This document shows, piece by piece, positions 4,614-41,174 of a DNA stretch of 64,000 nt (its first letter is position 1; every line of letters starts with the position of its first letter). Both the position numbers and the translations under genes were made by a program. This stretch comes from Dehalococcoidia bacterium. GTDB taxonomy: Bacteria; Chloroflexota; Dehalococcoidia; Plut-88900. The notes under the pieces were generated by a model that saw nothing but the letters and a program-made list of their open reading frames with translations, made no database searches and had not been told where the DNA came from. The stretch is from contig OZ240219.1 of NCBI GenBank assembly GCA_965197645.1, positions 1-64,000 of the forward strand, given 5' to 3'.

Positions 4614-4650
4614 CGCGGCGCACGACACCAGACACGAAAGGAGACACGAC

Positions 4651-6030: not shown

Positions 6031-6209
6031 ATGGCTCGCACCGAGCCGCACTCACGAGGCCCGCCGACTGCGCGGGTTCGCACGTTCAAGCAACCGCCTG
6101 GGGACGTTTCCGGGGACCCGCGACACGCAAACGTCCCCACCGGGGGCGTGGTGCGTCTAGGGTCCCGGCGTCGTCCTCCGGCCCACCACGGAATAGGAGG
6201 ACGACTCAC

Positions 6210-6542
6210 ATGAACCTCGGAGGTTTCATAGACACGTTCAAGGACGCGATAGCCAAGAGGGTGGTCGAGTCCTACCCGCCGCTCTACCGCCCCTCGGAGA
6301 ACGGCGGCACGCTCCCCAGGCTGCTTCGAAAGCCCCTGGGAGCGCAGGCCGACGCCATCAGGGGCGCGGCCCTCTCCCTGAAGGCCCACCGGGGCACGAC
6401 GGTAGTCGGGGAGATGGGAACCGGCAAGACCTTCATCGGCGCGGCGGCGGCATACATGGCAGGCTTCGAGAGGATTCTCATCATCTGCCCGCCCCACCTG
6501 GTCCCCAAGTGGAAGCGGGAGGTGGAGATGACGGTGCCCGGA
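6210..6542 (+). pseudogene. N-terminal fragment of an SNF2/DEAD-like helicase, fused in frame to the downstream GT2
   Basis: Walker A VGEMGTGKT and ICPPHLVPKWKRE, after which helicase similarity stops abruptly; AGGAGG RBS. Confidence 0.75.
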
Positions 6543-7244: not shown

Positions 7245-8669
<1,425 letters not shown>

Positions 8670-8746
8670 TAAACTCCATTGACAACTGGAAAGCCGAACT
8701 CGATGTTGCCTCGCATGTCGATCTACACCAATGCCAGGGGTAAACG

Positions 8747-9781: not shown

Positions 9782-9843
9782 CCCGTACAGAAGGCTTCAT
9801 TCGCCGGCGAGGGCTGCCGCGCTGAGCGGCAGCCCTCTTCTTC

Positions 9844-25766: not shown

Positions 25767-26611
25767 TCGACTACATCATCGGGCCCTTTGAGTATCCCTT
25801 CATGGTGCGAGCGCTGATCGTATCGGTACTGGTCGGGGTGATGTGCCCGGTCCTCGGAGCGTACGTCGTTACCCGGGGACGAGCGTTCATGGGAGACGCC
25901 CTCGCCCACTCGGTGCTGCCTGGAATGGTGGTAGCTTTTCTGCTGGGAATCAGTCCCTTCTTCGCGGCCGTACCTGCCGGAATCATCATAGCGCTGCTGA
26001 TGGGCTCCGTCGCCCGGCGCACCGGCATCAGCGAGGACACCTCTATCGGCATAGTGTTCGCCGGCATGTTCGCTCTTGGCTTGGTAATGCTTTCTAAAGC
26101 CACGCACGTCAACGTGAACATTGAAGATCTGTTGTTGGGCCAGGTGTTGGGTGTATCGCAAACCGATGTATACGTCTCACTGGCACTGGTTGCAGTGGTG
26201 TTGGTTGGGCTCTATGCCTTTCACCGTCAGCTGGTATACACAACCTTCGATCCCGTTGGCGCCTCCGTGGTCGGAATAAAGACGGGGTTGGTGGAATACG
26301 TGCTTCTCGCCCTTCTTGCCCTGGTCATCGTCATAGGCATCCAGGCCGCCGGAATCGTCCTTGTAATGGCAATGCTCATAACTCCAGCAGCGACTGCATA
26401 CCTGCTTGCCAAACGGTTCGTAGGGGTAATGGTGACCGGGGCGTTTATCGGCGCTGCCTCGGCTGTGGCGGGACTTTATCTTTCCTACTACGCCGACATG
26501 CCCTCCGGTCCCTCTATGGCCCTGATCGCCACTGTAGCTTTCGCGGTGGTCGCCGTGACCAAGTCTACCCCACGGAAGCATACTCTACCGTATCTCCGAG
26601 GCATTTGGTAA
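25763..26611 (+). CDS. znuB: Metal ABC transporter permease
   Basis: FMGDALAHSVLPG, EDTSIGI, LITPAATA. Confidence 0.9.
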   Translation: MIDYIIGPFEYPFMVRALIVSVLVGVMCPVLGAYVVTRGRAFMGDALAHSVLPGMVVAFLLGISPFFAAVPAGIIIALLMGSVARRTGISEDTSIGIVFAGMFALGLVMLSKATHVNVNIEDLLLGQVLGVSQTDVYVSLALVAVVLVGLYAFHRQLVYTTFDPVGASVVGIKTGLVEYVLLALLALVIVIGIQAAGIVLVMAMLITPAATAYLLAKRFVGVMVTGAFIGAASAVAGLYLSYYADMPSGPSMALIATVAFAVVAVTKSTPRKHTLPYLRGIW

Positions 26612-28434
26612 GCTTCGCGGCAAACCGAGAAGGAGACAAGCAGTTGGCGTTCACTTCACGTCTTGGGGGCGTCTTGAGAGGGTCCGTTCGATGGACGTCA
26701 TGGGCTGGGCTGGCATGCTTGCTGGCCGCAGCTCTGCTATCGGCATGCGGCCAAGATCCGACGGCGACACCGACGCCGGAGCCTGTAGCAACGGAGTCCA
26801 CGAGTGAAGAGAAAGTGCTGACCATCCTGTATTGGCAGGCCCCTTCTCTGCCTAATCCATATCTGTCCGGTGGCTTCAAGGACCGGGATGCCGGCGCGAT
26901 CACCCTGGAACCTCTGGCTAAGTACGACCCGGATGGCGAACTGGTTCCGGCGTTGGCCGCCCAAATCCCAACCCTCGAAAACGGCGGCTTCTCCCCGGAC
27001 CTGACGTCTATAACGTGGAAGCTGCGAGAGGGCCTAAAGTGGTCGGATGGCAGCGACGTGACAGCGGACGACGTGGTCTTCACGTGGCGCTATTGCGTGA
27101 ACGAAGATACTGGGTGCACGGCCAGCGGCGCATTTACCGGCATCGCCGCAGTGGAAGCCATTGACAATCTCTCCGTCAAGATCACCTTCCACGCGCCGAT
27201 ACCGTATCCATACAGCGCGTTCGTAGGCACCGGGACCCCCATCATCAGCCGGGCGCAATTCGCCGACTGTATCGGCGCCGCCGCGACGACCTGTGAGGCG
27301 GAGAATTTCTCACCGCTGGGGACCGGTCCCTATCGCATCATCGATTTCAAGGCCAACGATGAGGCCGTATATGAGCGCAACCCGTTCTACCGAGACAAGA
27401 GGCCCTACTTCGACCGGGTAATCATCAAAGGCGGTGGAGATGCGGAGTCTGCGGCCCGGGCCGTTTTGGAAACGGGCGAAGCCGACTACGTTTGGAACTT
27501 GCAATTGGAGCCGGAGAGTCTCGCTAAGATGGAAACGGTGGGACTGGGCAAAGTGGTCGTCGCGTTCTCCAGCCTAGTGGAACGTATCGTAATCAATCAT
27601 ACGAATCCGGACCCCGGGTTGGGAGACAATCGCTCGGAGTACCTGGATGGAGAAAACTCCCACCCATTCCTCACCTTCACCCCGATTCCCCAAGCCATGT
27701 CGATGGCGATAGATCGCAACGTCATATCGGAGCAGCTCTACGGTTTCGCCGGAGAGCCCACTTGCAATCTGATCGTCGGCCCTCCGAGCTATGTTTCGAC
27801 CGCCAACGACGGCTGCCTGACCCAGGACATCGAAGGCGCCAACAGACTGCTGGACGAAAACGACGTGCTCGATACCGACGAAGACGGCATCCGCGAGTAC
27901 AATGGCGTTCCTCTCCGTGTTACTTACCAGACTTCGACCAATGCTATCCGGCAAGAGACCCAGACGCTCGTACGTGACTGGTGGCGTCAGATAGGAATCG
28001 AGACCGAGCTGGTGCACCACGACGCCAGTGTCTTCTTCGGTGGAGACCCCGTGGACAACAAGGATGAGTCGTATCGAAGGTTCTTTGCCGACGTACAGAT
28101 GTACGCCAGCGGTTCCGACATAGATCCGCAGCAGTCTCTATCAGGTCTGCTCTGCGATCAGATCCCAACCCGTAACAACAACTGGGCCGGCAGCAACATC
28201 TTCCGCTCCTGCAACCCGGAGTACGATGAACTATTTGAACAACTAGCCCATACCCGAATCGGACCGGAGCGCATTACCCAGATCAAACAGCTAAACGACA
28301 TACTGGTACAGAGCTACTATGAACTTCCCCTCGTGAACCGAGGCGCCGTTTCCGCACACCTGAACAGCCTTCAAGGCATACGAATCAACGGGTGGGACAG
28401 TGAGATGTGGAACATCGCCGAGTGGCACCGCTAA
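26605..28434 (+). CDS. Peptide ABC transporter substrate-binding lipoprotein (start uncertain)
   Basis: Lipobox LSAC, YWQAPS, WSDGSDVTADD, GTGPY, WNIAEW. Confidence 0.88.
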   Translation: MVSFAANREGDKQLAFTSRLGGVLRGSVRWTSWAGLACLLAAALLSACGQDPTATPTPEPVATESTSEEKVLTILYWQAPSLPNPYLSGGFKDRDAGAITLEPLAKYDPDGELVPALAAQIPTLENGGFSPDLTSITWKLREGLKWSDGSDVTADDVVFTWRYCVNEDTGCTASGAFTGIAAVEAIDNLSVKITFHAPIPYPYSAFVGTGTPIISRAQFADCIGAAATTCEAENFSPLGTGPYRIIDFKANDEAVYERNPFYRDKRPYFDRVIIKGGGDAESAARAVLETGEADYVWNLQLEPESLAKMETVGLGKVVVAFSSLVERIVINHTNPDPGLGDNRSEYLDGENSHPFLTFTPIPQAMSMAIDRNVISEQLYGFAGEPTCNLIVGPPSYVSTANDGCLTQDIEGANRLLDENDVLDTDEDGIREYNGVPLRVTYQTSTNAIRQETQTLVRDWWRQIGIETELVHHDASVFFGGDPVDNKDESYRRFFADVQMYASGSDIDPQQSLSGLLCDQIPTRNNNWAGSNIFRSCNPEYDELFEQLAHTRIGPERITQIKQLNDILVQSYYELPLVNRGAVSAHLNSLQGIRINGWDSEMWNIAEWHR

Positions 28435-28824: not shown

Positions 28825-28862
28825 AAAAAGGAGAGCGGGCCCCTCTAGAGGGCCCCGCTCCG
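28825..28862 (-). terminator. Intrinsic terminator after the surface-protein gene pair
   Basis: GAGCGGGGCCCTC-TA-GAGGGGCCCGCTC followed by a T-run on the minus strand. Confidence 0.7.
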
Positions 28863-28896: not shown

Positions 28897-31104
28897 TTAC
28901 TGCTGTTGTGCCCTGATCCTGAAGAAGAGGACACCACCTACGACTATGACTACCACGGCGATGATGATCACTATGACCAGCCATACCGGGAATCCGCCTC
29001 CTTCGTCAGGTGTGACCGGAATGACCGGCGTCGACGTTGGTGTAGCCGTCGGTTCATCCGTAGGGGCGACTGTCGATGTTGGTGTAGCGACCGGCCCAAG
29101 CGTAGCAGTCGGCGTCGTTGTTGGTGTGGGTGTCGTAGTTGGCATCGCTGTTGGTGTGGGTGTCGCAGTTGGCGTAGCGGTGGGTGTTGGCGTAGCAGTT
29201 GGCGTCACCACAGGTGTAGCAGTTGGAGTCGGGGTGACTTCCGGTGGACTGGGCAGGGCCTGTGAAGGCTCTCCTCCCAGGGTCACTCCCGTTCCAGCCG
29301 CGTCGGTATAGGTTGCAGTGGCCCGTAGCATCATGCCGAGGTCATCCTCTGACGGAGTGTACTCGGCGGACATTGCGCCGGGAATGTCAGCCCACGTAGT
29401 CCCATCGGAAGAGCGCTGCCACTGCCAGCTGACGTCGGTGACGCCTCCGTCCGGATCGGTCAGCGCGGCGGTGATAGTCGTCCCCACCTCCGGCACACCG
29501 CCCGGGGACAGCGTGATAACGCCGTCCTCGTCCACATTGGTAACATTGATAGTGAGCGCTATGGAGGAGCTTTCTCCGGCCTGACGGGTCGCCGCATTCA
29601 CTGTCACCGAGTAAGCCTTGTCGGGGGACTCATAGTCAAGTACCGTGCCCTGCCCTACGGAGATCTGTCCCGTCTGCGAGTCGACTTCGAACTGATCTGC
29701 ATCCTCTCCCGACATAGAGTAGGTGATCCCACGTCCGTGCCCATGTGTAGCAACTACGGGATCGCCTACGCTGCTACCCGCTGGGCTGTTCTCCGCCACT
29801 TCCCTGGTGGTGCTAATGCCTTCACCAAACGAGGGTGCGACAGATGCTTGAGTTGGTCCTGCTGGGGTCGTGCCGGTGCCACCAGTGCTCCCGGTACCAC
29901 TACCACCGGTAGGCGTGGTGCTCGTTGGCGCCCGGACCGTTACGGTAGAATCGCCTGCATCACCGGAGAAACTATGATCACCATCCCGCACGTTGAGGCC
30001 GACCATAACCTCGTACGTGAAGGACTCTACCGACACAATCGTGAAAGTAACATTTCTGCTGTCGGCCGGGTCGACTTTACCTCTAACAACCCCATTGGGA
30101 TCGCCACTGACTCTGGTCGCAGACCCTTCTTCATAGCTGAACCCATCGGGCAGTATTTCCATAACCCGCCCTATTTCACCTTGCTCGCCGTATCCTGTAC
30201 CCGTGATCGTTACCGTCAACGTCTTACCCTGGGCCACCAAGCCCATAGGCAACTCCCTGCTAGGACCGCCCGGCGACGGCACAGAACCCCCTACCGTTAC
30301 ACTGGAATCGTCCACATCACCGGAGAAACTATGATCACCATCCCGCACGTTGAGGCCGACCATAACCTCGTACGTGAAGGACTCTACCGACACAATCGTG
30401 AAAGTAACATTTCTGCTGTCGGCCGGGTCTACTTTACCTCTAACAACCCCATTGGGATCGCCACTGACTCTGGTCGCAGACCCTTCTTCATAGCTGAACC
30501 CATCGGGCAGTATTTCCATGAGCCGCCCTATTTCACCTTGCTCGCCGTATCCTGTACCCGTGATCGTTACCGTCAACTCAGTCCCGGCGGACACTGGCTC
30601 TGGGGAGAAGGACCTAGCGCCGCTGGCCGATTCAGGTGAGGGCATCGTAGGCGTCGGGGCGGGTGGCGCCGTATCGGACGGCCCTACCGTTACACTGGAA
30701 TCGTCCACATCACCGGAGAAAGTATGATCACCATCCCGCACGTTGAGGCCGACCATAACCTCGTACGTGAAGGACTCTACCGACACAATCGTGAAAGTGA
30801 CATTTCTGCTGTCGGCCGGGTCGACTTTACCTCTAACAACCCCATTGGGATCGCCACTGATTCTGGTCGCAGACCCCTCTTTATAGCTGAACCCATCGGG
30901 CAGTGTTTCCATGAGCCGCCCTATTTCACCTTGCTCGCCGTATCCTGTACCCGTGATCGTTACCGTCAACTCAGTCCCGGCGGACACTGGTTCTGGGGAG
31001 AAGGACCTAGTGGCGCTGGCCTCCTGCGCGACCACGAGACTCAAGCTCAACAGGGCCATCAGCCCTGCAACCATGACAAACAGCAACGACGTTCTCTTGA
31101 TCAA
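28897..31104 (-). CDS. Membrane-anchored surface protein: signal peptide, three cohesin-like repeats, cadherin-like and Ig-like domains, PT linker, C-terminal TM
   Basis: Three repeats of about 112 aa (TRSFSPEPV..ETLPDGFSY..FSGD); VAENSPAG..LDYE..NVDE cadherin signature; hydrophobic tail plus RIR. Confidence 0.85.
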   Translation of the reverse strand: MIKRTSLLFVMVAGLMALLSLSLVVAQEASATRSFSPEPVSAGTELTVTITGTGYGEQGEIGRLMETLPDGFSYKEGSATRISGDPNGVVRGKVDPADSRNVTFTIVSVESFTYEVMVGLNVRDGDHTFSGDVDDSSVTVGPSDTAPPAPTPTMPSPESASGARSFSPEPVSAGTELTVTITGTGYGEQGEIGRLMEILPDGFSYEEGSATRVSGDPNGVVRGKVDPADSRNVTFTIVSVESFTYEVMVGLNVRDGDHSFSGDVDDSSVTVGGSVPSPGGPSRELPMGLVAQGKTLTVTITGTGYGEQGEIGRVMEILPDGFSYEEGSATRVSGDPNGVVRGKVDPADSRNVTFTIVSVESFTYEVMVGLNVRDGDHSFSGDAGDSTVTVRAPTSTTPTGGSGTGSTGGTGTTPAGPTQASVAPSFGEGISTTREVAENSPAGSSVGDPVVATHGHGRGITYSMSGEDADQFEVDSQTGQISVGQGTVLDYESPDKAYSVTVNAATRQAGESSSIALTINVTNVDEDGVITLSPGGVPEVGTTITAALTDPDGGVTDVSWQWQRSSDGTTWADIPGAMSAEYTPSEDDLGMMLRATATYTDAAGTGVTLGGEPSQALPSPPEVTPTPTATPVVTPTATPTPTATPTATPTPTAMPTTTPTPTTTPTATLGPVATPTSTVAPTDEPTATPTSTPVIPVTPDEGGGFPVWLVIVIIIAVVVIVVGGVLFFRIRAQQQ
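29935..31020 (-). repeat. Three near-identical intragenic repeats of about 335 bp
   Basis: Copies at about 30682-31020, 30289-30627 and 29935-30262, with only scattered differences. Confidence 0.92.
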
Positions 31105-31125
31105 GCTTTTCCCCTTATTGATTTC

Positions 31126-31184
31126 GTCTGCTTGAATGGCTTTCGGAGGGGAGGTGCCCCCCCTCGTTAGCCATCCAAGCAGAC
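31126..31184. other. Long intergenic stem-loop without a U-tail
   Basis: GTCTGCTTGAATGGCT ... AGCCATCCAAGCAGAC. Confidence 0.7.
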
Positions 31185-31222
31185 ACGGAACCTTCCTTCA
31201 CCAACATCGCCAACCGATTGAC

Positions 31223-34200
31223 CTAAAACTGGTCAAAGTAGAGGTCAACAATGTCTAGGATCTGATCCCCGGTAAGTTTGGGAGGGACATCAAAGTAATC
31301 ATCTACGGCATCAAGGACCTCGTCACCGTCAATCTCCCCGTCTGCGGGGTTATTGTCGTAGCCGTGCGCCGCTTCACCCAAGCCACCGGCAGCCGTCACC
31401 GTTATGGTGACCCTCACACTGTCGGTCTCCGTCCCGTCGTTGGCGATAACGTCTACGACGTAGCTCGCCTTCGTGGCGGCGTCCGGGATTACGATCGCCG
31501 TCGACATCTGACCGGTGTTGTCTATGCTGAAGCTGTTCCTATCGACGCCGCCCAGCGTGTAGGTCAGCGTGTCGCCGGTGTCAGCATCCGTAGCCGTAAC
31601 CGGGCCTCTGATGTCCACACCCGCCGCCGTACCTTCCACCACTCTCCTCGTGTCTGTTGCCGCAGCGAACTCAGGCGCGTTGTTTCCTGGCTGCGGCGTG
31701 ACCGCGCCGCGACTTATAGACGGCGCAGACGGCGCCTCGTTCACGCCGATGACCGTGATGGTCACCCTGACGGGGCCAATCTCGACCTCCGCGTCCGGGT
31801 CCGTAACCTCAATGGTGTAGGTCTTCTTGGCGGACTCGGAGTCGAAGTGTGTCACCACCGCCGCCGCCAACTGGCCCATTTTGTCGTCGGCGTCTTCCGT
31901 CATTTCGTCCACTGTAGTAGTAACCGGGTCATCGGCGATACTGTCGGAATCGGTCATGACGGCGTCGTAGTAGTTGTCGTCCGCCTCGTCGTAGTTCTCA
32001 GCGAACACGAAGGAAGCTCCGTCCGGGCCGCCTATGGTATCGCGCGGGCCCAAGTCTAGCAGCGGCATTCCCACGTACCCGGTTGAGGGCGTATTCTCTG
32101 CAACCTCTATATCGACGATTATAACTTCCGTAGAAGGCAGGTCGGTACCGTCCGTTGGGTCGGGGTCCGCCTGCACCGCGTTGTCCGTTACCGTTGACAG
32201 CATCGTGTCGGAGTTATGGTGCAAGTCATCGCCCTCGTTCACGCTCCCGTCGTCATTTCGATCCTGGAACTTGTGCTGCTCGACCGGGGTGGGGGTGGTC
32301 TCTGGGTCATCGTTCCTTTCGTCGAGCGCGGTGACCGGGTCGTTCTCCACACTCGCGCCGTCCCGGTAGTCCACCATGGCCCACAGGAACTGGCCTACCT
32401 CGCCCGTATGGCTGTCTGTCGTGGCGCCCGGGACTAATTGGGTGGGATCTGCGAACGCGAGTTCTGCGGCTTCATCGGTGAGCCTATCGGGGGTCGCAAG
32501 CCATTTCCAATCGGTGATGCTCACTATGCCGTCGGGGTCGGTCAGGGTAGCCATTACCGGTGCCCCATCGTGAGGCTGCTCCGGCGAGAGCACCAGCTTC
32601 CCCGCCTCGTTCACGTTCATGACCGTTACTCTGACGCTCTTCTCACCGTCGAGGCCGTCGCCGTCGACGACCCTTACCGTGACCTCGTACACGTTGTCGC
32701 GGTTGGCGTCCATGGGGTTCTCGTAGTCCGGTGCATTTTTGAAGTGGAGTCTTCGTCCGATGCCGTCGCCGGGGGTGCTGTACTCGAAGAGAGCACCGTC
32801 GGGACCGGGGATGGGATTATCGGGCCACGACGCACGATCAACTACGTCATCCTCGGACCGGATGTAGAGGTTGCTGTCGTCATTGGTGCCGTCGTCATCG
32901 GTGGGGAGGCCCGTGTAAGAGTCGTCGTTACTGCTATCCGCCTCGTCGACTGATAGCTCTGCGTTTCCTGCCGTCACCCTCGGGGCCTCGTTTACGTCGG
33001 TGGCGGTGATGGTCACCACGATGTCGTCACGGTCCTCGTTGGCGTTCGTCGCTCCCTCTCCCGATGGATCGGTGGCCCTGACGACGACCACGTACTCTCC
33101 AGCAGTGAGATCAAGAGTAGGCGCGTTGACCGTGCCGTAATCTCGGCCATCCGTTTCTTCGGCGGACAGCGCTTTCGCCACCATGATCTGGCCGGTGGCC
33201 TTGTTGATGGAGAAGAATGCCACGTCTTCGATGTCAACGGAGGTGTTGCCATCGTCGCCGTCGACTTCCATCACCAACTCGTAGGTTAGTATGTCGGGGT
33301 CCTCATTCACGTCCACCACAACCGGAGCGCCCACGGGGTCACCCACGGCGGCGGACTCCAGCACCGATCTGGTGTCCATATTCTCTGTAAAGTCGGGGGA
33401 ATTGTTGGCCTCGTCGGACACGTCCGCTCGCACCCGGTTGGCCGATATTCCAATTGCGGTGTTGTCGCCGGTGCTTTGTGTGTCGTCGTAGTCTGCCATT
33501 CTTGCCAGCAGGTGCCAGCCCTCATCATCGTCTGCATCCGGGGTGTAGTCCTCGGAAGCAGCCCCGGTAATGAGTTCCCATTCTCCGGCAAGATCGGTCG
33601 TGTCAGTGCCAGGGTCACGGTTAGGATTGTTGACCTTGGCCCTATACCAGCTCCAGGTCCCGCCGGTAACATCGCCATCAAGGTCAGACAGTTCGGCGGT
33701 TATCTCGGTACCAACCTCGGGCTGCAGCCAGTTCAGCTCTACCTTCCCCTTTTCGTCCACATCGGTGACCTCTACAGTGACGGCCAATTCGTCCGCTTTG
33801 CGCGGGCCGTCGTGGACGGAACGCATCTCGGTGGCCCGCACCGTTATCTGGTAAGTGTTGTCGTTGGGTGCGAATTCGCCTTCATCGGTGAACTCCTCAG
33901 GGGCACCAGTGTCAGTGTCAGCAGGGTTCAGGTTGAGGCCCCGGTCCGTCGGGCTCTCGAAGTTCGGCTGGTTCTTGAACCGGAGCTCGACGCGGTCCTT
34001 GCCGTCATTGATGTCGGCGACGTCAACGATCATAAAGTCGGATGCGTCAGTCCCCGTGACTTCCCAGCGGATCCTGTGGCCGTCAGGCTCCCTCGCCGCC
34101 AATGGGACCACCATATTCGTCCGCGTTTCGGCGTACGTAATTGTGCCGCTAACGCTATCCCGTGACTGCCTGTCAAAGTACGGGGACTCGTTCAGGTTCG

Positions 34201-36646
34201 TGAGACTGATTGTCACCCTGGCGGTGGCTTTACGAGTGTCGTCAGCCGCGTCGGTAGCTGTAACTATGACGACGAAGGTATTGACGCCCTCGTCGTCCAG
34301 TGTTGGGTCGTCCTTGCCAGGAGCAGCCGCATCTGACGGAACAGCACTGACCCCGTCAGGAAGAGGATTGGGGAAGTCAACCTCACCCACCCTGATCTGG
34401 CCCGTCGCCTCGTCTATGGTGAAGTAGGCGTTATCGTTGGTCTCGGTGGCGTTCAGGTCATAGATGAAGGTCTTGCCTTCTTCTGTCATCACCCGGACGG
34501 GGGCGCCAACGATGCTCCCGACCTCGGCGTTCTCAACCACGCTCCTGTCGTAAGGCGCATCGGAGAACTCGAGGACGGAAATTTGACTGGGGTCGTCCGG
34601 GTCCACGCGCACTGCATTCTTCGAGATCGCCATCACCCGGTACAGATTGTCAACATTCGATTCTTTGGCCTCCGGGCTGCCGGCAACCTCCTTCTGGGTA
34701 CGTTCGTCGACCTCTACCGTGCTCGGATCGTCTTCGTCACTCATGGTGTCCGTGTAGGTCGCCGTCGCCCGCAGGAAGTAGCTGTCATCATCGTCCGTTG
34801 GCGTGTAGGTGGCCGTCGTGGCACCGAGTATAACTTCGAAGTTCGCCTCCAGACCGATGGATTTGGATTTATGCCACTGCCACGTGACAATGGCCACGCC
34901 TTCGTCCGGGTCCTCCACGGCGGCGGTTATCATGTTTCCAATAAGGGGCTGGTCCGGGTCATCTCCCGCCGCCGACAACGTTGCCTTCCCTGTCTCCTGG
35001 ATGTTGTCAACGAAAATAGTCAGGGGCCTCTCATCCGTACCACCTGCGCTGTCGGTGGCCACCAGCGTCACCTTGTAAACGCTGTCGTAGTTTTCATCCG
35101 TCGGATTCTCGTAGTCGGGCGCCTCTTTGAACCTGAGCGCGATGGGCTCACCAGGTCCCTTCAGGCCGCTAGCAATATCAACCGAGCTCGAGCTGAGCTC
35201 GAAGTCATCCTCGTCCTCCCCCTTCCACGACCAGAAGATCTGCCCGCGGGCATCTTCGTCACTCGCGGTGAAGACGTTCAAACGGCCGGGAACACTGGGC
35301 CTCTCCATGTCTGGTGTGCCGTCGTATGAATCGCCGGACTTCTCGTCGACGCGGAGCTCGGACGGCGCATCGGGGCGGTCTCCGAATACAGAGTTAGTGG
35401 AGGCGACGCTGCCCATTATCACAGGGGCGTCGTTTGCGGCGGTGGCGGTAATGGTCACTTCGACTTCAGCCGTTTCGCCGCTGGGGTCGGTGGCCCTGAC
35501 GATTACCTTGTACACTCCTGCGGCAGTGTCGGTTGCTCGGGCAGCGTCGGCGTCCAGCTTGGACTTCACGCTGATCTGGCCCGTCGCCTTGTCTATACTG
35601 AAGGAGTCATCGTCGGCGTCGTTGGGGCTCTCGGACGCCACCAACTCGTAGGTCAGCGTGTCGTTTTGCGGGTCCGTGGCCTCAACCGGGTCGCCCACGG
35701 GGTCATCCACGGCCGTGCTCTCCGGCACGCTCCTGGTGTAGTCCAACCCAGCGGTAAAGCCAGGGGAACCGTTGGCAGGATTTGTAACTCCATCCAAGTC
35801 GGAGGAAACCTCCGCCCGCACCGGATTGACCGATACCCCAATCGCGGTCTTTCCCACGCCATGGTCGTCGGCATAGGTCGCCACGGCCCTCAGAACCCTG
35901 GTTTCGTCTACTGCAGAGTCGGAATCAGGGGGGTCCGGACTCGTGATGTCGTCCACACGGTCCCCAGCCGGAGTATAGGTTGCATTGTCAATAAGCCCGG
36001 TAGCACTGACCCAATGGCCCTCAACGTCAGCGACAGGTTTCGTAACCTTGGACACGGACCACGTCCATGTAACGGTGCCGTCGACGCCGTCAGGGTCGCT
36101 CAGTTCGGCCGTTATCGGGGTACCAACCTCGGGCTGGAGCAGGTTGAACGTCACGCTACCAGTCTCATTCACGTTGGTGACCTGGACGGTAACATCCGTC
36201 TCGGTCGAGAGGGCGCGGCCGGTTTCGCCGGAGCCTCTCACCTCAGTGGCCCGCACCGTTATCTGGTACATGTTATTGGTGGCATCGTCCGTTTCGCCAT
36301 CGTCATCGGTATCGTCATCACCGTTGAGATCTTTGGCGTGCGCTCTGTCCGTCGGACTCTCGTAGTCGGGCGAGCTGAGGAAGGTGAGCACGCCGCCGTC
36401 TCTGCTGATCTCGAAGTCGTCGGCGTCGGTCCCTGTCACGTCCCATTTAATCCTCGCGCCCTCAGGGTCAGTCGAAGTGAAGGTACGCACCGGGCCGTCG
36501 CCTTTCTCAGCGTACTGTATTGGCCCTTCCTGCGCGAAGGCTACATCATTATGTGAAGGTACAGAAAGGGACAGTATCATAGTCGCCAGCAGGACACCGA
36601 CGACCACTACCACCCATACTGCTGCATTATGTGACCGATTTGGCAT
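31223..36646 (-). CDS. Giant acidic cadherin-repeat secreted protein with a C-terminal dockerin-like module
   Basis: Signal peptide after ATG 36646; repeated PDYESPTD/VRATD/TNVNE cadherin motifs; C-terminus YDNNPADGEIDGDEVLDAVDDYF..LTGDQILDIVDLYF. Confidence 0.85.
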   Translation of the reverse strand: MPNRSHNAAVWVVVVVGVLLATMILSLSVPSHNDVAFAQEGPIQYAEKGDGPVRTFTSTDPEGARIKWDVTGTDADDFEISRDGGVLTFLSSPDYESPTDRAHAKDLNGDDDTDDDGETDDATNNMYQITVRATEVRGSGETGRALSTETDVTVQVTNVNETGSVTFNLLQPEVGTPITAELSDPDGVDGTVTWTWSVSKVTKPVADVEGHWVSATGLIDNATYTPAGDRVDDITSPDPPDSDSAVDETRVLRAVATYADDHGVGKTAIGVSVNPVRAEVSSDLDGVTNPANGSPGFTAGLDYTRSVPESTAVDDPVGDPVEATDPQNDTLTYELVASESPNDADDDSFSIDKATGQISVKSKLDADAARATDTAAGVYKVIVRATDPSGETAEVEVTITATAANDAPVIMGSVASTNSVFGDRPDAPSELRVDEKSGDSYDGTPDMERPSVPGRLNVFTASDEDARGQIFWSWKGEDEDDFELSSSSVDIASGLKGPGEPIALRFKEAPDYENPTDENYDSVYKVTLVATDSAGGTDERPLTIFVDNIQETGKATLSAAGDDPDQPLIGNMITAAVEDPDEGVAIVTWQWHKSKSIGLEANFEVILGATTATYTPTDDDDSYFLRATATYTDTMSDEDDPSTVEVDERTQKEVAGSPEAKESNVDNLYRVMAISKNAVRVDPDDPSQISVLEFSDAPYDRSVVENAEVGSIVGAPVRVMTEEGKTFIYDLNATETNDNAYFTIDEATGQIRVGEVDFPNPLPDGVSAVPSDAAAPGKDDPTLDDEGVNTFVVIVTATDAADDTRKATARVTISLTNLNESPYFDRQSRDSVSGTITYAETRTNMVVPLAAREPDGHRIRWEVTGTDASDFMIVDVADINDGKDRVELRFKNQPNFESPTDRGLNLNPADTDTGAPEEFTDEGEFAPNDNTYQITVRATEMRSVHDGPRKADELAVTVEVTDVDEKGKVELNWLQPEVGTEITAELSDLDGDVTGGTWSWYRAKVNNPNRDPGTDTTDLAGEWELITGAASEDYTPDADDDEGWHLLARMADYDDTQSTGDNTAIGISANRVRADVSDEANNSPDFTENMDTRSVLESAAVGDPVGAPVVVDVNEDPDILTYELVMEVDGDDGNTSVDIEDVAFFSINKATGQIMVAKALSAEETDGRDYGTVNAPTLDLTAGEYVVVVRATDPSGEGATNANEDRDDIVVTITATDVNEAPRVTAGNAELSVDEADSSNDDSYTGLPTDDDGTNDDSNLYIRSEDDVVDRASWPDNPIPGPDGALFEYSTPGDGIGRRLHFKNAPDYENPMDANRDNVYEVTVRVVDGDGLDGEKSVRVTVMNVNEAGKLVLSPEQPHDGAPVMATLTDPDGIVSITDWKWLATPDRLTDEAAELAFADPTQLVPGATTDSHTGEVGQFLWAMVDYRDGASVENDPVTALDERNDDPETTPTPVEQHKFQDRNDDGSVNEGDDLHHNSDTMLSTVTDNAVQADPDPTDGTDLPSTEVIIVDIEVAENTPSTGYVGMPLLDLGPRDTIGGPDGASFVFAENYDEADDNYYDAVMTDSDSIADDPVTTTVDEMTEDADDKMGQLAAAVVTHFDSESAKKTYTIEVTDPDAEVEIGPVRVTITVIGVNEAPSAPSISRGAVTPQPGNNAPEFAAATDTRRVVEGTAAGVDIRGPVTATDADTGDTLTYTLGGVDRNSFSIDNTGQMSTAIVIPDAATKASYVVDVIANDGTETDSVRVTITVTAAGGLGEAAHGYDNNPADGEIDGDEVLDAVDDYFDVPPKLTGDQILDIVDLYFDQF

Positions 36647-36962
36647 GAAATTCCTCACTTCGCCCTTGTAGCTTGGCTCGATTCTCCAATTCCCGGCTTG
36701 TATAGTTCCGCAGCACTCTATCATTCAAGATAACGCCTGTCAACAGATTCCCGACGCCAATTCGTTGTGGTTGTGAACTCGTTCATTAAAGATACGAGAC
36801 AAGGAGGCTGCGCCGAGCCGACCGGCAAGCCCAGGAATGCATCCCCGCCGAAGGGTCTACTCAAGAAGCGGCGCCCAAGGAACCGTTACCGGCCCACATA
36901 CGTTTACTCTATTATCATTAACGGTGTGACCGAAGGAATCGTTAGCAAGGAGCCTGGGTACA

Positions 36963-39900
36963 ATGACGAAGCTCTTGGCATTGGCAACGGTGGCGATCAT
37001 CCTGGTGGTCCTGGCGAGCTGCGATAGGTCCAGCCCGACCACCGAGCCGGCTCGGCCCGACGAAACGCCGGTTTCCCAAACCTCTACACCCACGACAGCG
37101 CCGGTTACGACGGTGGAGGTGGTTCCGGGCCTTGCGCCGGACAGCTTCGTCGCCGTGGTTCCGAGCACCCTCCGAGCAGGCTACGCGGAGCGGGTCTCGA
37201 TCTCGCTGTTCAACGGGGACCGGCTGGTGGCGGGCAACGTGCTGCTGACCCTGAGCGACAGGGGGGGCACGGTGGGTACCGTCCTAGCCGCGAGGGTGGA
37301 AGGCACCGACAGCGTGGAGCTCCTGATACCGCAGCTGGAACCGGGCCGGTACAGGATCGAAGTTGAGGTGGAGGAGGTCGATGAGACCCGGAGCGCCCTC
37401 GTCGAGGTGGAGGATGGAGTGCTGCTGTTCGTCGAGACGGACAAGCCGATCTACAAGCCGGGCCAGACCGTCCATATCCGTCTGATGACGCTGGACGCTC
37501 TGCTCAAGCCGTGGCAGTTCGCCGCTACCATCGAGGTGCAGGACGCCAAGGGCATCAAGGTGTTCAAGAAGGAGGTGACTACAGACGAATACGGCATGGC
37601 AACAGTCGACCTGCCGCTGTCCACTGAGCCGAACCTGGGCGTCTGGAAACTCACGGCCCTTGCTGGGGCCCAGAAGACGCAGCTGGACGTGAGGGTGGAG
37701 GAGTACGTTCTGCCCAAGTACGAGGTTAACATCAACACCGACCGCGACTGGCTCCTCGCCGGCGATCCGGTCATCGGTACCGTATCGGGAGAGTACTCCT
37801 TCGGCAAACCGGTGGTGGGCGAGATGGAGATCGTAGCCTCGCGGTACGTCGGCCAGTGGGAGGAGTACGCTCGGTTCCAGGGCCCCATAGACGGCGAGAC
37901 GACGTTCAAGCTGCCGCCAGTGGGCTTCGTCGCCGGTGTTCCCCAGGCCGGCGGTCAGGGGAACCTCACGCTGGACGTGACCATCCGCGAGAAGGGCACC
38001 GGGTACGAGGAGAAGACCAGCAAGCTCATCACCGTAGCAGCCGCGCCGATAACGCTGAAAGTGATACCGGATAGCCTTGTATTCAAGCCTGGCCTGGAGA
38101 TGTCTTATTTGGTCGTCACCCAGGAACCCGACGGCTCACCAGCCGTCGATACCGTTGTGACCCTCACCCTCGCCTACTTGGACAGGGAGTTCGAGCAGAT
38201 TGACGAGGAGACGATCGAGGTTACGACGTCCAGAGGCAAGGCCATCGTGAAGGCTGCCCCGCCGTCGGAAGCCATAGGTCTGACCCTATGGGCGGAAGCC
38301 GGCGATGCGTACACCTCCCTGTCCCTGCAGTCAGGCCATTCGCCGTCGGGCAACTTCATCCACCTCGAGCAGGTGACCCAGGGCGACGTAAATGTCGGAG
38401 ATAGGGTGCGGTTCCGGGCCCACTCGACGCGCGAGGCGCGCAACTTCTACTACGAGGTGCTCTCCAGGGGCACCGTCATCTTCACCGACGTATCGTCGGG
38501 CCCGGATATCGAGTTCGTCTCCACCCAGCTGATGGCGCCGTCTTCCCGCATCCTGGTCTACCAGATCCTGCCCAACAACGAGATTGCCGCCGACTACCTT
38601 CCCTTCGACGTCCAGGCATCCTATCCCCACGACGTCCAGATCGGCTTCAGCGAGGAAGAGGTGAGACCGGGCACTGCAGTCGACATCAACCTCCAGACCC
38701 AGGGTGAGTCGCGGGTCGGTCTCGTAGCCGTGGACCGGTCGGTGTTCATCCTGGCTGAGAACCGGCTGAACCTGCAGCAGGTGTTCAACGAGTTGGAGAG
38801 GCTCTACCTGGAGCCACAAGTGGAGCTCCACGAGGCCCGGTTCACCGATGTCATCAACACCCGTGGGGCGGAGGAGACCTTCAGGGACGCCGGCGCCATC
38901 GTGTTGACGAACAAGGACGTCCCCTCGGGCGAGAGGATTGTGCGGGAGGTCTTGGAGATCATGGCTATGGAGGAGGTCATGGAGGAGGCTGCGGACTCGG
39001 TGTCCATCGCCTATAGTCTTGGAGTCGCCGACTTGAGCGCACACGAGGGGCTGGCCGAGGTGCAGCGGGTCCGCCAGTTCTTCCCCGAGACGTGGATATG
39101 GCAGGACGTCTACACCGGCGCCGACGGCGCCGCAGTCCTGCCCGTAGAAGCGCCTGACAGCATCACGACGTGGGTGCTCCGCGCCGTGGGTATGTCCAAA
39201 GAGCACGGCCTCGGCATAGGAGAGAGCGCCCTGCGGGTGTTCCAACCCTTCTTCCTGACGGTGGACCTGCCCTTCTCCGCGATTCGAGGCGAGGAGTTGC
39301 CCGTAAAGGTCGCCCTGTTCAACTATCTGGAGACGCCGCAGGAGATGTTCGTCAAGATCGAGGAGGCCGGCTGGTTCGACCTTCTCGACGACCCGTTGAA
39401 ATCGATCACCATAGACGCCAACGACATCGGCGGGGCCGAGTTCATGATTCGTCCCAGGGGTCTCGGCAGCAACTCAATCAAGATCACTGCGCGTAGCACC
39501 GAGGCCGCCGACGCCGTCATCAAGGAGCTTCTGGTGCAGCCCGAGGGAGTAGGCGTGGAGACCGTTGAAAATTACGTGGTCTCCGATGGCCATCACAGCG
39601 AGTTTGATACCTCACTGCCCTTCGACGCTGTCGAGGGGTCCGGCAGGGCCTACGTTGCGCTGACGGGCAGCTTCCTGACCCAGAGCATCGAGGGACTGGA
39701 CCAGCTTCTTAGGATGCCATTCGGGTGCGGGGAGCAGAACATGATCCTGTTCGCTCCCAACGTGTACATAGCGCGCTACCTGAAGGAAACGGGGCAACTG
39801 AAGCCCGAAATCATGGCCAAGGCCGAGCACCTGATGACCGTTGGATACCAGAGGGAGCTCACCTACCGGCGGAGCGACGGCAGCTTCTCCGCCTTCGGAG

Positions 39901-41174
39901 AGTCGGACCAATCGGGCAGCCTGTGGCTCACGGCCTTCGTTATGAAGACCTTCGCCGAGGCGAGGGCACTGATGTACATCGACCCTTCGGTGATCGACAG
40001 CGCCGCGGCGTGGATAGAGTCTCACCAGAAGAGCGACGGGTCGTTCGAGAACGTCGGTTTCCTGCACCACCAGGAACTGCTGGGCGGACTGCAAGGGAGG
40101 GACGCTCTGACGGCCTACGTGTCTATCGCACTGCTCGAGACGGGCAACAGCTTCTCAGCCGGACACGCCATCGGCTACCTGGAAGGCCGGTTGAACGAGA
40201 TCGAGGACCCCTACACGATGGCAATCACGGCCTATGCCCTGGAGCTGGCGGGCAGCCGGCACACCGATACGGCCTACGATAAGCTGATGTCGATGGCCCA
40301 GGTCGACGACAACGGTGCGTTGTACTGGGGCGAAGGTGGACCATCCATCGAACCGGATGCTGAAGACCACTACGGTCTGGACTATGGGAATCGTAGCGCT
40401 GCCATCGAGACGACCGGATACGCCCTTCTCGCCCTGCTGGAGCGTCAGGACCTGGTCAGCGCATCTCAGACGGCCAAGTGGCTGGTGGGACAGCGGAACG
40501 CACTGGGCGGCTTCGGCTCCACCCAGGACACTATCGTCAGTTTGCAGGGTCTCACGTCTTTCTCAACGAAGGTGCGCTCAAACGTCGATATGACTGTGGT
40601 GCTGGAAAGCGGCGGCTGGCGCCAGGAGGTAGACATTACTCCCGAGAACTCCGACGTGATGCAGATAGTGCAGGTCCCTCTCGGCGAAACGTTGGTCGTG
40701 ACGGCCGAAGGCGACGGGGACGCTGTCGTACAGTCGGTGCTGAGGTACAACGTCCCGGAGAGCCGGCCCGAGGTCCAGGAGGTGTTCGACATCACCGTCG
40801 ACTACGGCACGGACCACGTCAAGGTCGATGATCTCATTACGATCTCTACGTCGGTTACTTTCACGCCGCCAGCTCCCATCGAGGCGGGCATGGTGGTGGT
40901 CGACGTTGCCGTGCCCACGGGGTTTGAGCCCGTTCGACAGACCGTTAGCGACATAGTCGAGGACAACGCCAACGTCAAGCGGTTCGAGATCGCCGGTCGG
41001 AAGGTGATCCTCTACATCGAGGACATGCTACCTAGCGAGACGGTCTCCTTCGAGTTCCAGGCACGGGCGAAGTACCCGGTCCGGGCGAAAGAGGTGGTGT
41101 CCGAGGTGTACTCCTACTACCGGCCGGAGCATCGCGGCGAGACCCTTGCGGGCGCGTTGACCGTGATCCAGTGA
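36963..41174 (+). CDS. Alpha-2-macroglobulin/CD109/TEP-like thioester lipoprotein
   Basis: Lipobox LASC, ETDKPIYKPGQ, EYVLPKYEV, FPETWIW, PDSITTW, MPFGCGEQNM, DGSFSAFG, GGFGSTQDT, YSYYRPE. Confidence 0.92.
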   Translation: MTKLLALATVAIILVVLASCDRSSPTTEPARPDETPVSQTSTPTTAPVTTVEVVPGLAPDSFVAVVPSTLRAGYAERVSISLFNGDRLVAGNVLLTLSDRGGTVGTVLAARVEGTDSVELLIPQLEPGRYRIEVEVEEVDETRSALVEVEDGVLLFVETDKPIYKPGQTVHIRLMTLDALLKPWQFAATIEVQDAKGIKVFKKEVTTDEYGMATVDLPLSTEPNLGVWKLTALAGAQKTQLDVRVEEYVLPKYEVNINTDRDWLLAGDPVIGTVSGEYSFGKPVVGEMEIVASRYVGQWEEYARFQGPIDGETTFKLPPVGFVAGVPQAGGQGNLTLDVTIREKGTGYEEKTSKLITVAAAPITLKVIPDSLVFKPGLEMSYLVVTQEPDGSPAVDTVVTLTLAYLDREFEQIDEETIEVTTSRGKAIVKAAPPSEAIGLTLWAEAGDAYTSLSLQSGHSPSGNFIHLEQVTQGDVNVGDRVRFRAHSTREARNFYYEVLSRGTVIFTDVSSGPDIEFVSTQLMAPSSRILVYQILPNNEIAADYLPFDVQASYPHDVQIGFSEEEVRPGTAVDINLQTQGESRVGLVAVDRSVFILAENRLNLQQVFNELERLYLEPQVELHEARFTDVINTRGAEETFRDAGAIVLTNKDVPSGERIVREVLEIMAMEEVMEEAADSVSIAYSLGVADLSAHEGLAEVQRVRQFFPETWIWQDVYTGADGAAVLPVEAPDSITTWVLRAVGMSKEHGLGIGESALRVFQPFFLTVDLPFSAIRGEELPVKVALFNYLETPQEMFVKIEEAGWFDLLDDPLKSITIDANDIGGAEFMIRPRGLGSNSIKITARSTEAADAVIKELLVQPEGVGVETVENYVVSDGHHSEFDTSLPFDAVEGSGRAYVALTGSFLTQSIEGLDQLLRMPFGCGEQNMILFAPNVYIARYLKETGQLKPEIMAKAEHLMTVGYQRELTYRRSDGSFSAFGESDQSGSLWLTAFVMKTFAEARALMYIDPSVIDSAAAWIESHQKSDGSFENVGFLHHQELLGGLQGRDALTAYVSIALLETGNSFSAGHAIGYLEGRLNEIEDPYTMAITAYALELAGSRHTDTAYDKLMSMAQVDDNGALYWGEGGPSIEPDAEDHYGLDYGNRSAAIETTGYALLALLERQDLVSASQTAKWLVGQRNALGGFGSTQDTIVSLQGLTSFSTKVRSNVDMTVVLESGGWRQEVDITPENSDVMQIVQVPLGETLVVTAEGDGDAVVQSVLRYNVPESRPEVQEVFDITVDYGTDHVKVDDLITISTSVTFTPPAPIEAGMVVVDVAVPTGFEPVRQTVSDIVEDNANVKRFEIAGRKVILYIEDMLPSETVSFEFQARAKYPVRAKEVVSEVYSYYRPEHRGETLAGALTVIQ

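Follow-up and report, generated by a model that had tools for sequence, protein, structure and literature searches.

Two neighbouring genes on the minus strand of a 64,000-nucleotide window (the whole stretch of DNA that was analysed) probably encode a two-part, non-covalent surface display system in which a C-terminal tag on the product of gene A docks a receptor carried by the product of gene B, and the arrangement is likely to be a general device in Dehalococcoidia and ANME-type archaea. Gene B would encode the receptor, a type-I membrane protein whose linker and cadherin/Ig stalk hold three domains off the membrane, and gene A the cargo, which lacks an anchor and would leave the cell by means of an N-terminal signal peptide. 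The last ~45 residues of the tag would form a helical plug in which one EF-hand-type Ca2+ loop leads into its exit helix and a duplicate of that helix follows. Plugging of the tag into a receptor domain would tether the adhesin to the cell, with up to three copies per anchor. We infer direct binding, its Ca2+ dependence and its stoichiometry. The features of the locus are as follows.

36715..36743, minus strand: promoter-like hexamer pair TTGACA-17-TAGAGT upstream of gene A Met27 (consensus match only)
31223..36646, minus strand: gene A, secreted cadherin-repeat giant, ~1807 aa from Met27
36530..36646, minus strand: signal-peptide-like N-terminus of gene A (MPNRSHNAAVWVVVVVGVLLATMILSLSVPSHNDVAFAQ), read from the translation
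31226..31378, minus strand: C-terminal tag of gene A, 51 aa, with EF-hand-type Ca loop, helix 1, short linker and helix 2 (tag profile E 4.3e-10)
31319..31357, minus strand: Ca-loop-like stretch of the tag, DNNPADGEIDGDE, 13 residues; the canonical loop of the family, DxNxNGxIDxxE, is one shorter
31292..31333, minus strand: tag helix segment 1, IDGDEVLDAVDDYF
31235..31276, minus strand: tag helix segment 2, LTGDQILDIVDLYF, a duplicate of segment 1 minus the first seven loop positions
31105..31222, minus strand: spacer between genes A and B, 118 nt, with RBS-like AAGGGG before a TTG start
28897..31104, minus strand: gene B, putative membrane-anchored receptor or mini-scaffoldin protein, 735 aa
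31012..31104, minus strand: gene B signal peptide, read from the translation
30670..31020, minus strand: gene B receptor domain repeat 1, a predicted beta-sandwich (domain profile E 4.1e-16; AF2 pLDDT 94.5)
30274..30624, minus strand: receptor domain repeat 2, 92% identical to repeat 1
29917..30261, minus strand: receptor domain repeat 3, 79% identical to repeat 1
29539..29802, minus strand: stalk cadherin domain, residues 435-522 (Pfam Cadherin E 5.6e-9)
29230..29538, minus strand: stalk Ig-like domain, a weak assignment (Pfam SCAB-Ig E 0.0011, NCBIfam ZirU E 4e-6)
28993..29259, minus strand: Pro/Thr-rich linker, residues 616-704, read from the translation
28900..28992, minus strand: C-terminal transmembrane helix (FPVWLVIVIIIAVVVIVVGGVLFF; residues 705-728) and basic tail RIRAQQQ
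28837..28855, minus strand: terminator-like stem-loop directly after gene B (consensus match only)

The frame of gene A is open to 36724 (ORF 31223-36724, minus strand, 1833 codons). Met27 (36646) is the likelier start, because a promoter-like site lies within the longer ORF and a signal-peptide-like hydrophobic stretch follows Met27; promoter-like sites in this region number 2, against 3.0 +/- 1.7 in shuffled sequence. Pfam Cadherin is found in four stretches (E 8.1e-29), and the translation has no C-terminal hydrophobic or membrane anchor, as stated in a preliminary description of this DNA that took gene A for a secreted, unanchored cadherin-repeat protein. The build which that description gave for gene B (signal peptide, three tandem beta repeats, cadherin/Ig stalk, Pro/Thr linker and transmembrane anchor) is likewise confirmed. 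The three near-identical beta domains, of about 110-115 aa, are matched in the DNA by direct repeats of 300 nt each (29915-30214, 30272-30571 and 30665-30964), which are 92-95% identical and spaced by 357 and 393 nt, and the stalk is recognized by Pfam Cadherin. The C-terminal layout of transmembrane helix and tail recurs in 32 aligned relatives. Gene B is built like a small anchoring scaffoldin, with tandem receptor modules on a cell-anchored protein as in cellulosome-like systems. As signals of an operon, the 118 nt between the two genes hold no terminator-like site and one follows gene B directly; the region holds 8 such sites, against 6.1 +/- 2.7 in shuffled sequence. Pfam and NCBIfam scans of genes A and B, as whole proteins and as single modules, find no cohesin, dockerin or C-terminal sorting-signal family.

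The last 51 residues of gene A end in YDNNPADGEIDGDEVLDAVDDYFDVPPKLTGDQILDIVDLYFDQF and the stop. The two helix segments, of 14 aa each, have 8/14 residues in common, and the duplication is conserved across the family alignment (51 sequences); the module with a Ca-loop-like stretch and a duplicated helix is there exactly as first described. Invariant in the alignment are D8 and E20 in tag numbering and, in loop numbering, the Asp at position 1 and the Glu at position 12. The 12-residue loop occurs in the first segment only, while the second retains the last loop residues and the helix, and YF motifs are conserved in the family. The AF2 model of the tag has three helices (pLDDT 87). Pfam EF-hand_6 matches 44 of the 51 tags and EF-hand_1 matches 42; a search of PDB sequences with the tag profile places EF-hand proteins on top (best E 7.8e-9), and the family has the canonical 12-residue loop, DxNxDGxIxxxE, with the flanking helix that marks an EF-hand (PF00036, PF13405). 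Judged by its sequence, the tag is a predicted single EF-hand with an extra helix. The tag of gene A itself departs from its family: its Ca loop is longer by one inserted residue, and no Pfam family matches it.

Dockerin_1 matches only one of the 51 tags, at E 0.083; the same library recovers, as a positive control, the canonical N-terminal dockerin of a solute-binding protein on the contig that bears the tag-anchor pair of the archaeal locus L080, at 30.7 bits. A dockerin (PF00404) has two segments of ~22 residues, each with its own Ca loop and helix, and the tag is not built in this way, though like a dockerin it is a terminal module on diverse secreted proteins. When the tag model is compared with known structures by VIA-align, the best Z is 4.1, and the dockerins 2ozn_B (Z 3.4) and 2vn5_B (Z 3.3) stand level with many unrelated helical chains; Foldseek has no match at E<=0.001 and puts dockerin 2y3n_D at E 5.4. 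These fold searches do not discriminate because the tag is too small. A role of the tag as a C-terminal secretion signal of the T1SS type is rejected, as the cargo proteins carry N-terminal signal peptides.

The fold of the receptor domain was expected to resemble that of cohesins, and the modelled fold matches cohesins and other folds alike. The AF2 model of repeat 1 (pLDDT 94.5) has 8 predicted strands, and cohesins are among its best matches (Z 9.0-11.2): 2jh2_A at Z 11.2 (rmsd 2.6, 101 aligned), 2w1n_A at Z 10.5 (rmsd 2.5, 101 aligned), 2vo8_A at Z 10.5, 4ums at Z 10.0 and the A. fulgidus cohesin 2xdh at Z 9.0. These are tied, within 1 Z unit, with an integrin calf domain (3fcs_A, Z 11.2), CLIPPER (9ifr, Z 10.1) and pilins (Z 9.1-9.4), and Foldseek TM-scores to cohesins are 0.36-0.60. 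The match of the modelled repeat to cohesins appears non-specific and generic. The CLIPPER domain has been tied to intramolecular isopeptide bonds (PMC12617251). An isopeptide-bond domain, the reading prompted by this match, is rejected because the invariant residues of the domain alignment are R, E, P, G, F, Y and G only, with no invariant Lys or Asn/Asp.

Among the 25 Pfam families listed as matching 53 domain sequences at E<=1 (7 further families, not listed, account for no more than one member apiece), Cohesin (PF00963) does not occur, and a search of all PDB sequences with the domain profile gives two matches, at E of at least 0.33, neither of which is a cohesin. DUF11 (PF01345) weakly matches 29/53 domains at E<=1 (best 3.8e-6) and TIGR01451 matches 18/53 (best 4.7e-4), while the three repeats of gene B have no DUF11 match. 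The family has an invariant signature, R...E-x-L-P-x-G-F...F...Y...G, and would be remotely DUF11-like. The domain search yields 625 clusters at 50% identity, and proteins in the library have up to 15 domain-matched stretches each; two of the 120 relatives listed carry a name, in both cases 'hypothetical protein'. No Pfam or NCBIfam model was found for either the tag or the receptor domain. As far as sequence can tell, neither module belongs to the cohesins or the dockerins. The earlier assignment to these families is not supported, in view of the single Dockerin_1 match, the lack of a Cohesin match, and one Ca loop where a dockerin has two. The genes probably encode a docking and anchoring pair that is cohesin-dockerin-like in its working and made from different or very diverged modules.

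The tag and the domain are found together at several scales. In the whole genome (3.2 Mb), the tag profile has three matches, two of them C-terminal, and the domain profile finds only two genes, each of which has one of the C-terminal tags immediately upstream. The second pair consists of a tagged giant beside a one-domain anchor (pair G000:C1 2005992-2009597; anchor 2005992-2006675). Among 80 related loci from bacteria and archaea, fetched with the anchor alignment, a tag lies upstream of the first domain of the anchor on the same strand in 66 (median distance 133 nt), a count made with a tag profile built from the tags of these same loci; the other 14 loci have no adjacent tag. The tag is within 5 residues of the C-terminus in 56 of the 66 paired loci, and the upstream frame has at least 1000 aa in 50. 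When all domain-bearing frames are considered, 72/94 are paired with a tag. The central anchors of the 80 loci carry one domain in 59 cases, two in 3, three in 15 and four in 3. The adjacency at these loci, together with the second pair in the genome, supports the functional coupling of tag and repeat domain that was first proposed from this locus.

Co-occurrence of the modules across genomes, put forward as a check of the pairing, is borne out: in 301 Dehalococcoidia genomes (E<=1e-5), the modules occur together in 30, the domain alone in 2, the tag alone in 5 and neither in 264, related genomes being non-independent samples in these counts as in those of synteny. In total the domain is present in 32 genomes and the tag in 35, and the two domain-only cases both lie near E 5e-6. 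A reading of the two match tables places the tag directly upstream of a domain gene in 28 of the 30 genomes with both modules. Genome G260 carries a cluster of 13 tags without any match to the domain.

The genes could be linked while the tag is recognized by some other partner, such as the S-layer, another receptor or a processing enzyme; the anchored protein would then be a co-expressed accessory, serving as a spacer, a fence or an export or folding helper for very large cargo. We consider this unlikely. The generic fold match of the receptor domain is compatible with it, as are the tags that stand apart from a domain gene: 53 of the 89 tag matches in the class do not adjoin one, and G260 has its 13 in a genome with no domain match. 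No third conserved gene, such as a sortase-like enzyme, is found within 6 kb downstream of the anchors, where the largest cluster (16/80 loci) is another giant; on the upstream side the giants take up the 10-kb flanks. The receptor domain is the only conserved globular part of the anchor, and the tag is the sole feature common to the proteins encoded ahead of anchors, namely cadherin giants, subtilases and solute-binding proteins. One locus, L059, puts a covalent link in place of the pair, since it is a natural fusion in which a single frame encodes giant, tag, 9 aa, domain, PT linker and transmembrane helix; the signal peptide of the anchor is lost, and both YF motifs read YA.

Prediction of the complex between one repeat and the tag, a check suggested at the outset, bears on the same alternative. 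The pair scores 0.57 (runs 0.57, 0.63 and 0.53), while the best of three controls scores 0.08; the partners are modelled with pLDDT of 90 or higher, and 12% or more of the contacts are common to the runs. The score passes a mark that is reached by 116/157 solved complexes and 2/215 mismatched pairs, but it falls in the weak band; passing scores of 0.60 or below comprise 18 of the 157 solved complexes and both of the passing mismatches. The prediction, which returned no interface, lends weak support to docking of the tag by the domain, and its weakness also suits recognition by another partner.

The tag is a portable module, carried by secreted proteins that are unrelated. Among 33 tag-bearing frames scanned, 19 have Cadherin, 3 Peptidase_S8, 3 SBP_bac_5 (all archaeal), 2 PPDK_N and 1 RCC1, and 4 have no family. 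No glycoside hydrolase or CBM family is found at E<=1e-5 in these frames or in genes A and B; cargo of carbohydrate-active enzymes, as in a cellulosome, is lacking in the set. A role in adhesion alone, as in the preliminary description, is too narrow, because subtilases and archaeal solute-binding proteins are tagged as well. The pair may tether cadherin giants, subtilases and the solute-binding proteins of ABC transporters, in Dehalococcoidia and in ANME/Methanosarcinales-type archaea. In the ANME-1 locus L080, the gene order is an SBP_bac_5 protein with a tag, an anchor with two domains and PGF-CTERM, and two ABC permeases, which places the anchor inside an Opp-type transporter operon whose binding protein needs a tether. 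In archaea the anchor thus also adjoins small binding proteins (~570 aa), which makes a helper dedicated to giant cargo improbable.

It is quite unlikely that the tag instead serves the cargo protein itself, as a cap for Ca2+-dependent intramolecular folding or as a means of self-association, the domain protein an unrelated DUF11-type protein, and their adjacency a matter of envelope co-regulation only: the EF-hand matches of the tags in Pfam and PDB sequences and the weak DUF11 matches of 29/53 domains fit this explanation, as does a weaker domain match without a tag in 38 of 79 genomes in the archaeal class, but it is opposed by the fixed spacing (median 133 nt) in 66/80 bacterial and archaeal loci, by the two tags that abut the only two domain genes of the whole genome, by the presence of the tag in all 12 archaeal genomes with close-subfamily domains (E<=1e-30), and by co-divergence. 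The tagless archaeal matches indicate that the domain family is wider than the pairing; in the archaea, an independent lineage, 14/23 tag matches abut a domain gene. As to co-divergence, tag and domain distances in the 66 pairs have a Spearman correlation of 0.50, against 0.29 between the domain and the 110 aa preceding the tag, a repetitive control region whose alignment may be poor; partial correlation gives 0.46 for tag and domain and 0.18 for control region and domain. The tag thus co-diverges with the domain more than does the adjoining part of its own protein.

A docking pair of tag and receptor is the preferred reading, and a fuller form of it stands about evenly balanced in our estimate. 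It holds that a single-EF-hand tag and a DUF11-like receptor make up a new pair, convergent with or diverged from cohesin-dockerin, which would serve as a general tether for adhesins, proteases and ABC binding proteins in wall-less, monoderm Dehalococcoidia (SAR202 included) and ANME/Methanosarcinales-type archaea, with pair-specific subfamilies that may give several orthogonal tethers per cell. Dehalococcoidia are not known to have a peptidoglycan wall, so anchoring by a wall-linked sortase or SLH mechanism should not apply. If true, the Ca-tag and receptor pair would explain how very large surface proteins are retained in a widespread marine and subsurface group, would account for the tethering of some archaeal ABC-transporter binding proteins, and would add two new domain families to annotation, both now blank in Pfam and NCBIfam. 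It could also yield a small docking pair for protein engineering that is orthogonal to cohesin-dockerin. No published description of the pair was found in the literature searched, which lies largely outside subscription journals.

Several known systems resemble parts of the pair. DUF11/TIGR01451 repeats are also tandem beta-sandwiches in surface proteins of archaea and monoderm bacteria, with weak profile matches to the receptor domain, but the receptor family has its own invariant signature and a conserved tag-bearing neighbour. EF-hand motifs (EF-hand_1, _5, _6 and _7; for example in calerythrin and lanmodulin) share the loop DxNxNGxIDxxE followed by an exit helix. Unlike them, the tag combines a lone loop with a duplicate helix that has no loop; it is extracellular, forms the extreme C-terminus of surface proteins and has conserved YF motifs; the tag of gene A, with its 13-residue loop, matches no EF-hand model.

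In Ruminococcus flavefaciens, a group-2 dockerin with a single Ca loop is reported to be functional (PMC12270676), which shows that a one-loop module can still dock. The group-2 modules are genuine dockerins in truncated form, and their partner in the cellulosome is a genuine cohesin, ScaE (PMC12270676); in the present pair the loop resembles an EF-hand and the partner cannot be recognized as a cohesin. ANME archaea have dockerin-bearing solute-binding proteins and multi-cohesin proteins, according to a survey whose protein lists were drawn up with domain models already available for cohesins and dockerins (Chadwick et al., 2022; PMC9012536). The organisms are the same as those with the archaeal pairs, and so is the cargo class of NikA/OppA-type binding proteins with a docking module (PMC9012536), but the present tag lies at the C-terminus, with a single loop, and Dockerin_1 does not match it. 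Contig GOMG1_105 (L078, with three domain genes), the sole contig cross-checked against the supplementary list of this survey, is not seen in a copy of that list that may be truncated (Chadwick et al., 2022; PMC9012536).

The closest comparison is with cohesin-dockerin itself, in its cellulosomal types I-III and in the non-cellulosomal systems of Archaeoglobus fulgidus and Clostridium perfringens. The tag has one canonical EF-hand loop, with Glu at position 12, where dockerins have two F-hand loops; the receptor domain is shorter, at about 110 aa and 8 predicted strands; no carbohydrate-active enzyme is among the 33 cargo frames scanned; and the anchor is a transmembrane helix or PGF-CTERM rather than SLH or sortase. 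In common are a short duplicated Ca-binding helical module that is terminal on diverse secreted proteins, a beta-sandwich receptor (~110-140 aa) of which a cell-anchored protein with Pro/Thr linkers bears one to four copies in tandem, the adjacency of the partner genes, and the place of cohesins among the best structural matches of the domain. The pair, if true, bears on whether assembly of the cohesin-dockerin type arose more than once.

The two genes considered here lie 118 nt apart on the minus strand:

36724 to 31223, minus strand: gene A, open frame of 1833 codons, secreted giant with cadherin repeats
31104-28897, minus strand: gene B, 735 aa, membrane-anchored protein, with the following parts
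gene B, N-terminus: signal peptide
gene B: three tandem domains; at the DNA level, repeats of 300 nt with 92-95% identity
gene B: cadherin domain, Pfam E 5.6e-9
gene B: Ig-like region, weak match
gene B: Pro/Thr linker, transmembrane helix and basic tail

Gene A is likely to start at Met27 (36646, the coordinate given by the preliminary description); a promoter-like hexamer pair (36743-36715, a consensus-type match) falls within the longer frame and a signal-peptide-like stretch follows Met27. A Pfam scan finds cadherin repeats in four stretches (E 8.1e-29), and the protein has no hydrophobic C-terminal anchor; together with the signal-peptide-like stretch, these features bear out the earlier view of an unanchored, secreted cadherin giant. 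Its final 51 residues (31226-31378), GEAAHGYDNNPADGEIDGDEVLDAVDDYFDVPPKLTGDQILDIVDLYFDQF, hereafter the tag, match no family in the scan and read, as before, as a Ca-loop-like stretch and, after it, two helix segments that resemble each other; the loop is longer by one inserted residue. Gene B starts with TTG, preceded by an RBS-like AAGGGG. No terminator-like site was found between the two genes, and one lies directly past the end of gene B, whose layout of signal peptide, three repeats, cadherin/Ig stalk, Pro/Thr linker and C-terminal membrane helix is as first described. The pair is flanked by a divergent 1403-aa alpha-2-macroglobulin gene (36963-41174, plus strand; MG2, MG3, bait region, A2M, TED at E 2.1e-89, receptor-binding domains) and a convergent gene for an untagged SBP_bac_5 solute-binding protein (26605-28434, plus strand).

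The gene A tail and one gene B repeat were searched against the six-frame ORFs of the whole 3.2-Mb genome. A second locus was found at C1:2005992-2009597, where a cadherin giant ends in YDLNRNGTIEKDEVLAAVSDYFAGVIEKDDVLALVARYFAA and the next gene encodes an anchor: behind a signal peptide and one domain copy come a Pro/Thr linker, then a transmembrane helix and finally RRRRR. Counted by profile, the genome holds three tag matches and two domain-bearing genes, and each of the two C-terminal tags immediately precedes a domain gene. The remaining match falls in the interior of an unrelated protein (C1 3174360-3177053, minus strand; residues 374-412 of the stop-to-stop frame) that is rich in Pro and Thr at its N-terminus and contains DKPWVxDG repeats as well as HETAH; in the related locus L006 (1385-3880) a tag-like match is similarly placed. 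The second giant (C1 2006676-2015690, minus strand; 1077-10049 of the fetched locus L001) consists of 2016 + 973 codons split by one in-frame TGA near L001 3996-3998, within a cadherin repeat (...LTYGIQS*LDAALFEID...), which could reflect a pseudogene, a sequencing error or read-through. Upstream of it is an untagged 3120-aa secreted protein (L001 10361-19723, minus strand; C1 2015960-2025322) with LRR, GSDH and PPDK_N domains; PPDK_N is also found on two tagged proteins of other loci.

The arrangement is widespread. For the one-domain anchor there are at least 178 relatives of comparable length, nearly all lacking a Pfam domain, and the layout is the same throughout a 32-sequence alignment. 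With E<=0.001 as the cutoff, the gene B repeat matches 625 clusters of 50% identity in a library of 1.84 billion proteins, many with 2-15 matched stretches. Eighty related loci were taken from species-representative genomes, mostly Dehalococcoidia MAGs, with one labelled SAR202 and a few ANME-1, Methanophagales or Methanosarcinales archaea. In 66 loci a tag encoded on the anchor's strand ends upstream of its first domain (median distance 133 nt), and in 14 no adjacent tag was found. Of the 66, 56 have the tag at most 5 residues from the C-terminus and 50 have an upstream frame of 1000 aa or more. When every domain-bearing frame is counted, 72 of 94 are paired; because the tag profile was built from the tags of the same loci, these counts measure co-occurrence and do not amount to a blind test. 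The 6 kb that follow the anchors hold no conserved third gene.

Co-occurrence was tested with both profiles (E<=1e-5) in a sample of 301 genomes of the class, related genomes not being independent samples. The domain turns up in 32 of them, the tag in 35 and both in 30; two have the domain only (both near E 5e-6), five the tag only and 264 neither. Read off two tables, the tag is directly upstream of a domain gene in 28 of the 30 two-module genomes, as are 36 of all 89 tag matches, and many of the tags not adjoining a domain gene lie within ~15 kb of a three-domain anchor. Four genomes of one genus in the window's family (G020, G102, G154, G187) each have a three-domain anchor and three tag matches, most of them within about 15 kb of it; the number of tagged proteins may equal that of domains. 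Another genome of the class, G260, has 13 tag matches and no domain match at E<=1e-5; 12 tags form one ~50-kb cluster (C1 2153080-2201580, frames of 740-1720 aa), the thirteenth is at C1:1962025, and a different receptor may be used. Among 79 genomes of the archaeal class the domain occurs in 52, the tag in 17 and both in 14; the tag is present in all 12 whose domain match is close (E<=1e-30), and 14 of 23 tag matches adjoin a domain gene. Weaker domain matches without a tag in 38 of the 79 indicate that the domain family extends beyond the pairing.

The tag is portable. The cargo scan covered 33, mostly shorter ones, of the 78 frames that bear a tag and reach 300 aa, and found Cadherin in 19, Peptidase_S8 in three, SBP_bac_5 in three (all archaeal), PPDK_N in two and RCC1 in one; four matched no family, and no carbohydrate-active enzyme was seen among the 33. 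In an ANME-1 locus (L080, 8155-16952, plus strand), an OppA-like binding protein with a terminal tag is followed by an anchor (two domains, PGF-CTERM) and two ABC permeases, placing the pair inside an Opp-type transporter operon; a second SBP_bac_5 protein on that contig has a canonical N-terminal Dockerin_1. In locus L059 (6191-10612, plus strand) the pair is naturally fused in one frame: after the cadherin giant come its tag, nine further residues, the domain, the linker and the transmembrane helix. The anchor part no longer has a signal peptide, and YA replaces YF in both motifs of the tag.

By sequence the tag is an EF-hand and not a dockerin. Its consensus, YDxNxNGxIDxxEVxxAVxDYFxGxITKxxVxxxIxLYF, has a Ca loop in the first of two segments only, and in that loop Asp at position 1 and Glu at position 12 are invariant. 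EF-hand_6 is matched by 44 and EF-hand_1 by 42 of 51 tags, EF-hand proteins head a PDB sequence search, and the tag model (AF2, pLDDT 87, three helices) is so small that a fold search with it is not informative. The kinship with cohesins and dockerins proposed in the preliminary description is not supported at the level of family membership: Dockerin_1 is matched by one tag of 51 (E 0.083), and none of 53 domain sequences matches a cohesin profile (29 match DUF11 weakly). NCBIfam has no model for either module. The fold of gene B repeat 1 (AF2, pLDDT 94.5, all-beta) is cohesin-like. In an exhaustive structural comparison cohesins are at or near the top (2jh2_A, Z 11.2; 2w1n_A and 2vo8_A, Z 10.5; the A. 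fulgidus cohesin, Z 9.0), yet the likeness is non-discriminating because integrin calf domains, a CLIPPER domain and pilins score within one Z unit.

The simplest account is that tag and domain probably form a non-covalent docking pair, in which the tag of a secreted cargo would dock on the anchor's domain and tether the cargo to the membrane. We favor it because the tag is the sole feature common to varied cargo, the domain is the sole conserved globular part of the adjacent anchored protein, and the arrangement is fixed across bacteria and archaea, once with a covalent fusion instead. Docking would be Ca-dependent, given the EF-hand loop, and the three near-identical repeats of gene B suggest three adhesins per anchor.

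Complex prediction for repeat 1 and the tag with Ca, which returned a score without an interface, gave 0.57 (runs 0.57, 0.63, 0.53) against 0.08 for the best control, with partner pLDDT of at least 90 and at least 12% of contacts agreeing between runs. The score passes a mark that 116 of 157 solved complexes reach, as do 2 of 215 mismatched pairs; with a score of 0.60 or less, just 18 of the 157 and both mismatches reach it, and the predicted binding is thus weakly supported. Distance matrices of 66 adjacent pairs (the 72 less one duplicate and five with <100 aa before the tag) give a Spearman correlation of 0.50 for tag and domain and 0.29 for domain and the 110 aa ahead of the tag (partial correlations 0.46 and 0.18), mild support only because that control region is repetitive. 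It is unlikely that the tag has some other partner and the anchored protein is an accessory. Slightly less probable again is that the tag serves as a cap for folding or self-association, the synteny coming from co-regulation.

No published description of the tag-domain pair was found in the literature searched, a scope that leaves out most subscription journals, and GOMG1_105 (locus L078), the single contig compared, is absent among the ANME survey entries listed in the available part of PMC9012536. As a docking pair, tag and domain would be functionally near the dockerin-tagged binding proteins reported in ANME (PMC9012536), and a dockerin with a single Ca loop is described as functional (PMC12270676). 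One subtilase (L073, 7958-10735, plus strand; fn3, one domain, Big_12, C-terminal tag) combines both modules in a single protein, like some scaffoldins. Functionally nearest are the cohesin-dockerin pairs, the non-cellulosomal archaeal ones included; the sequences of tag and domain support membership of neither family.
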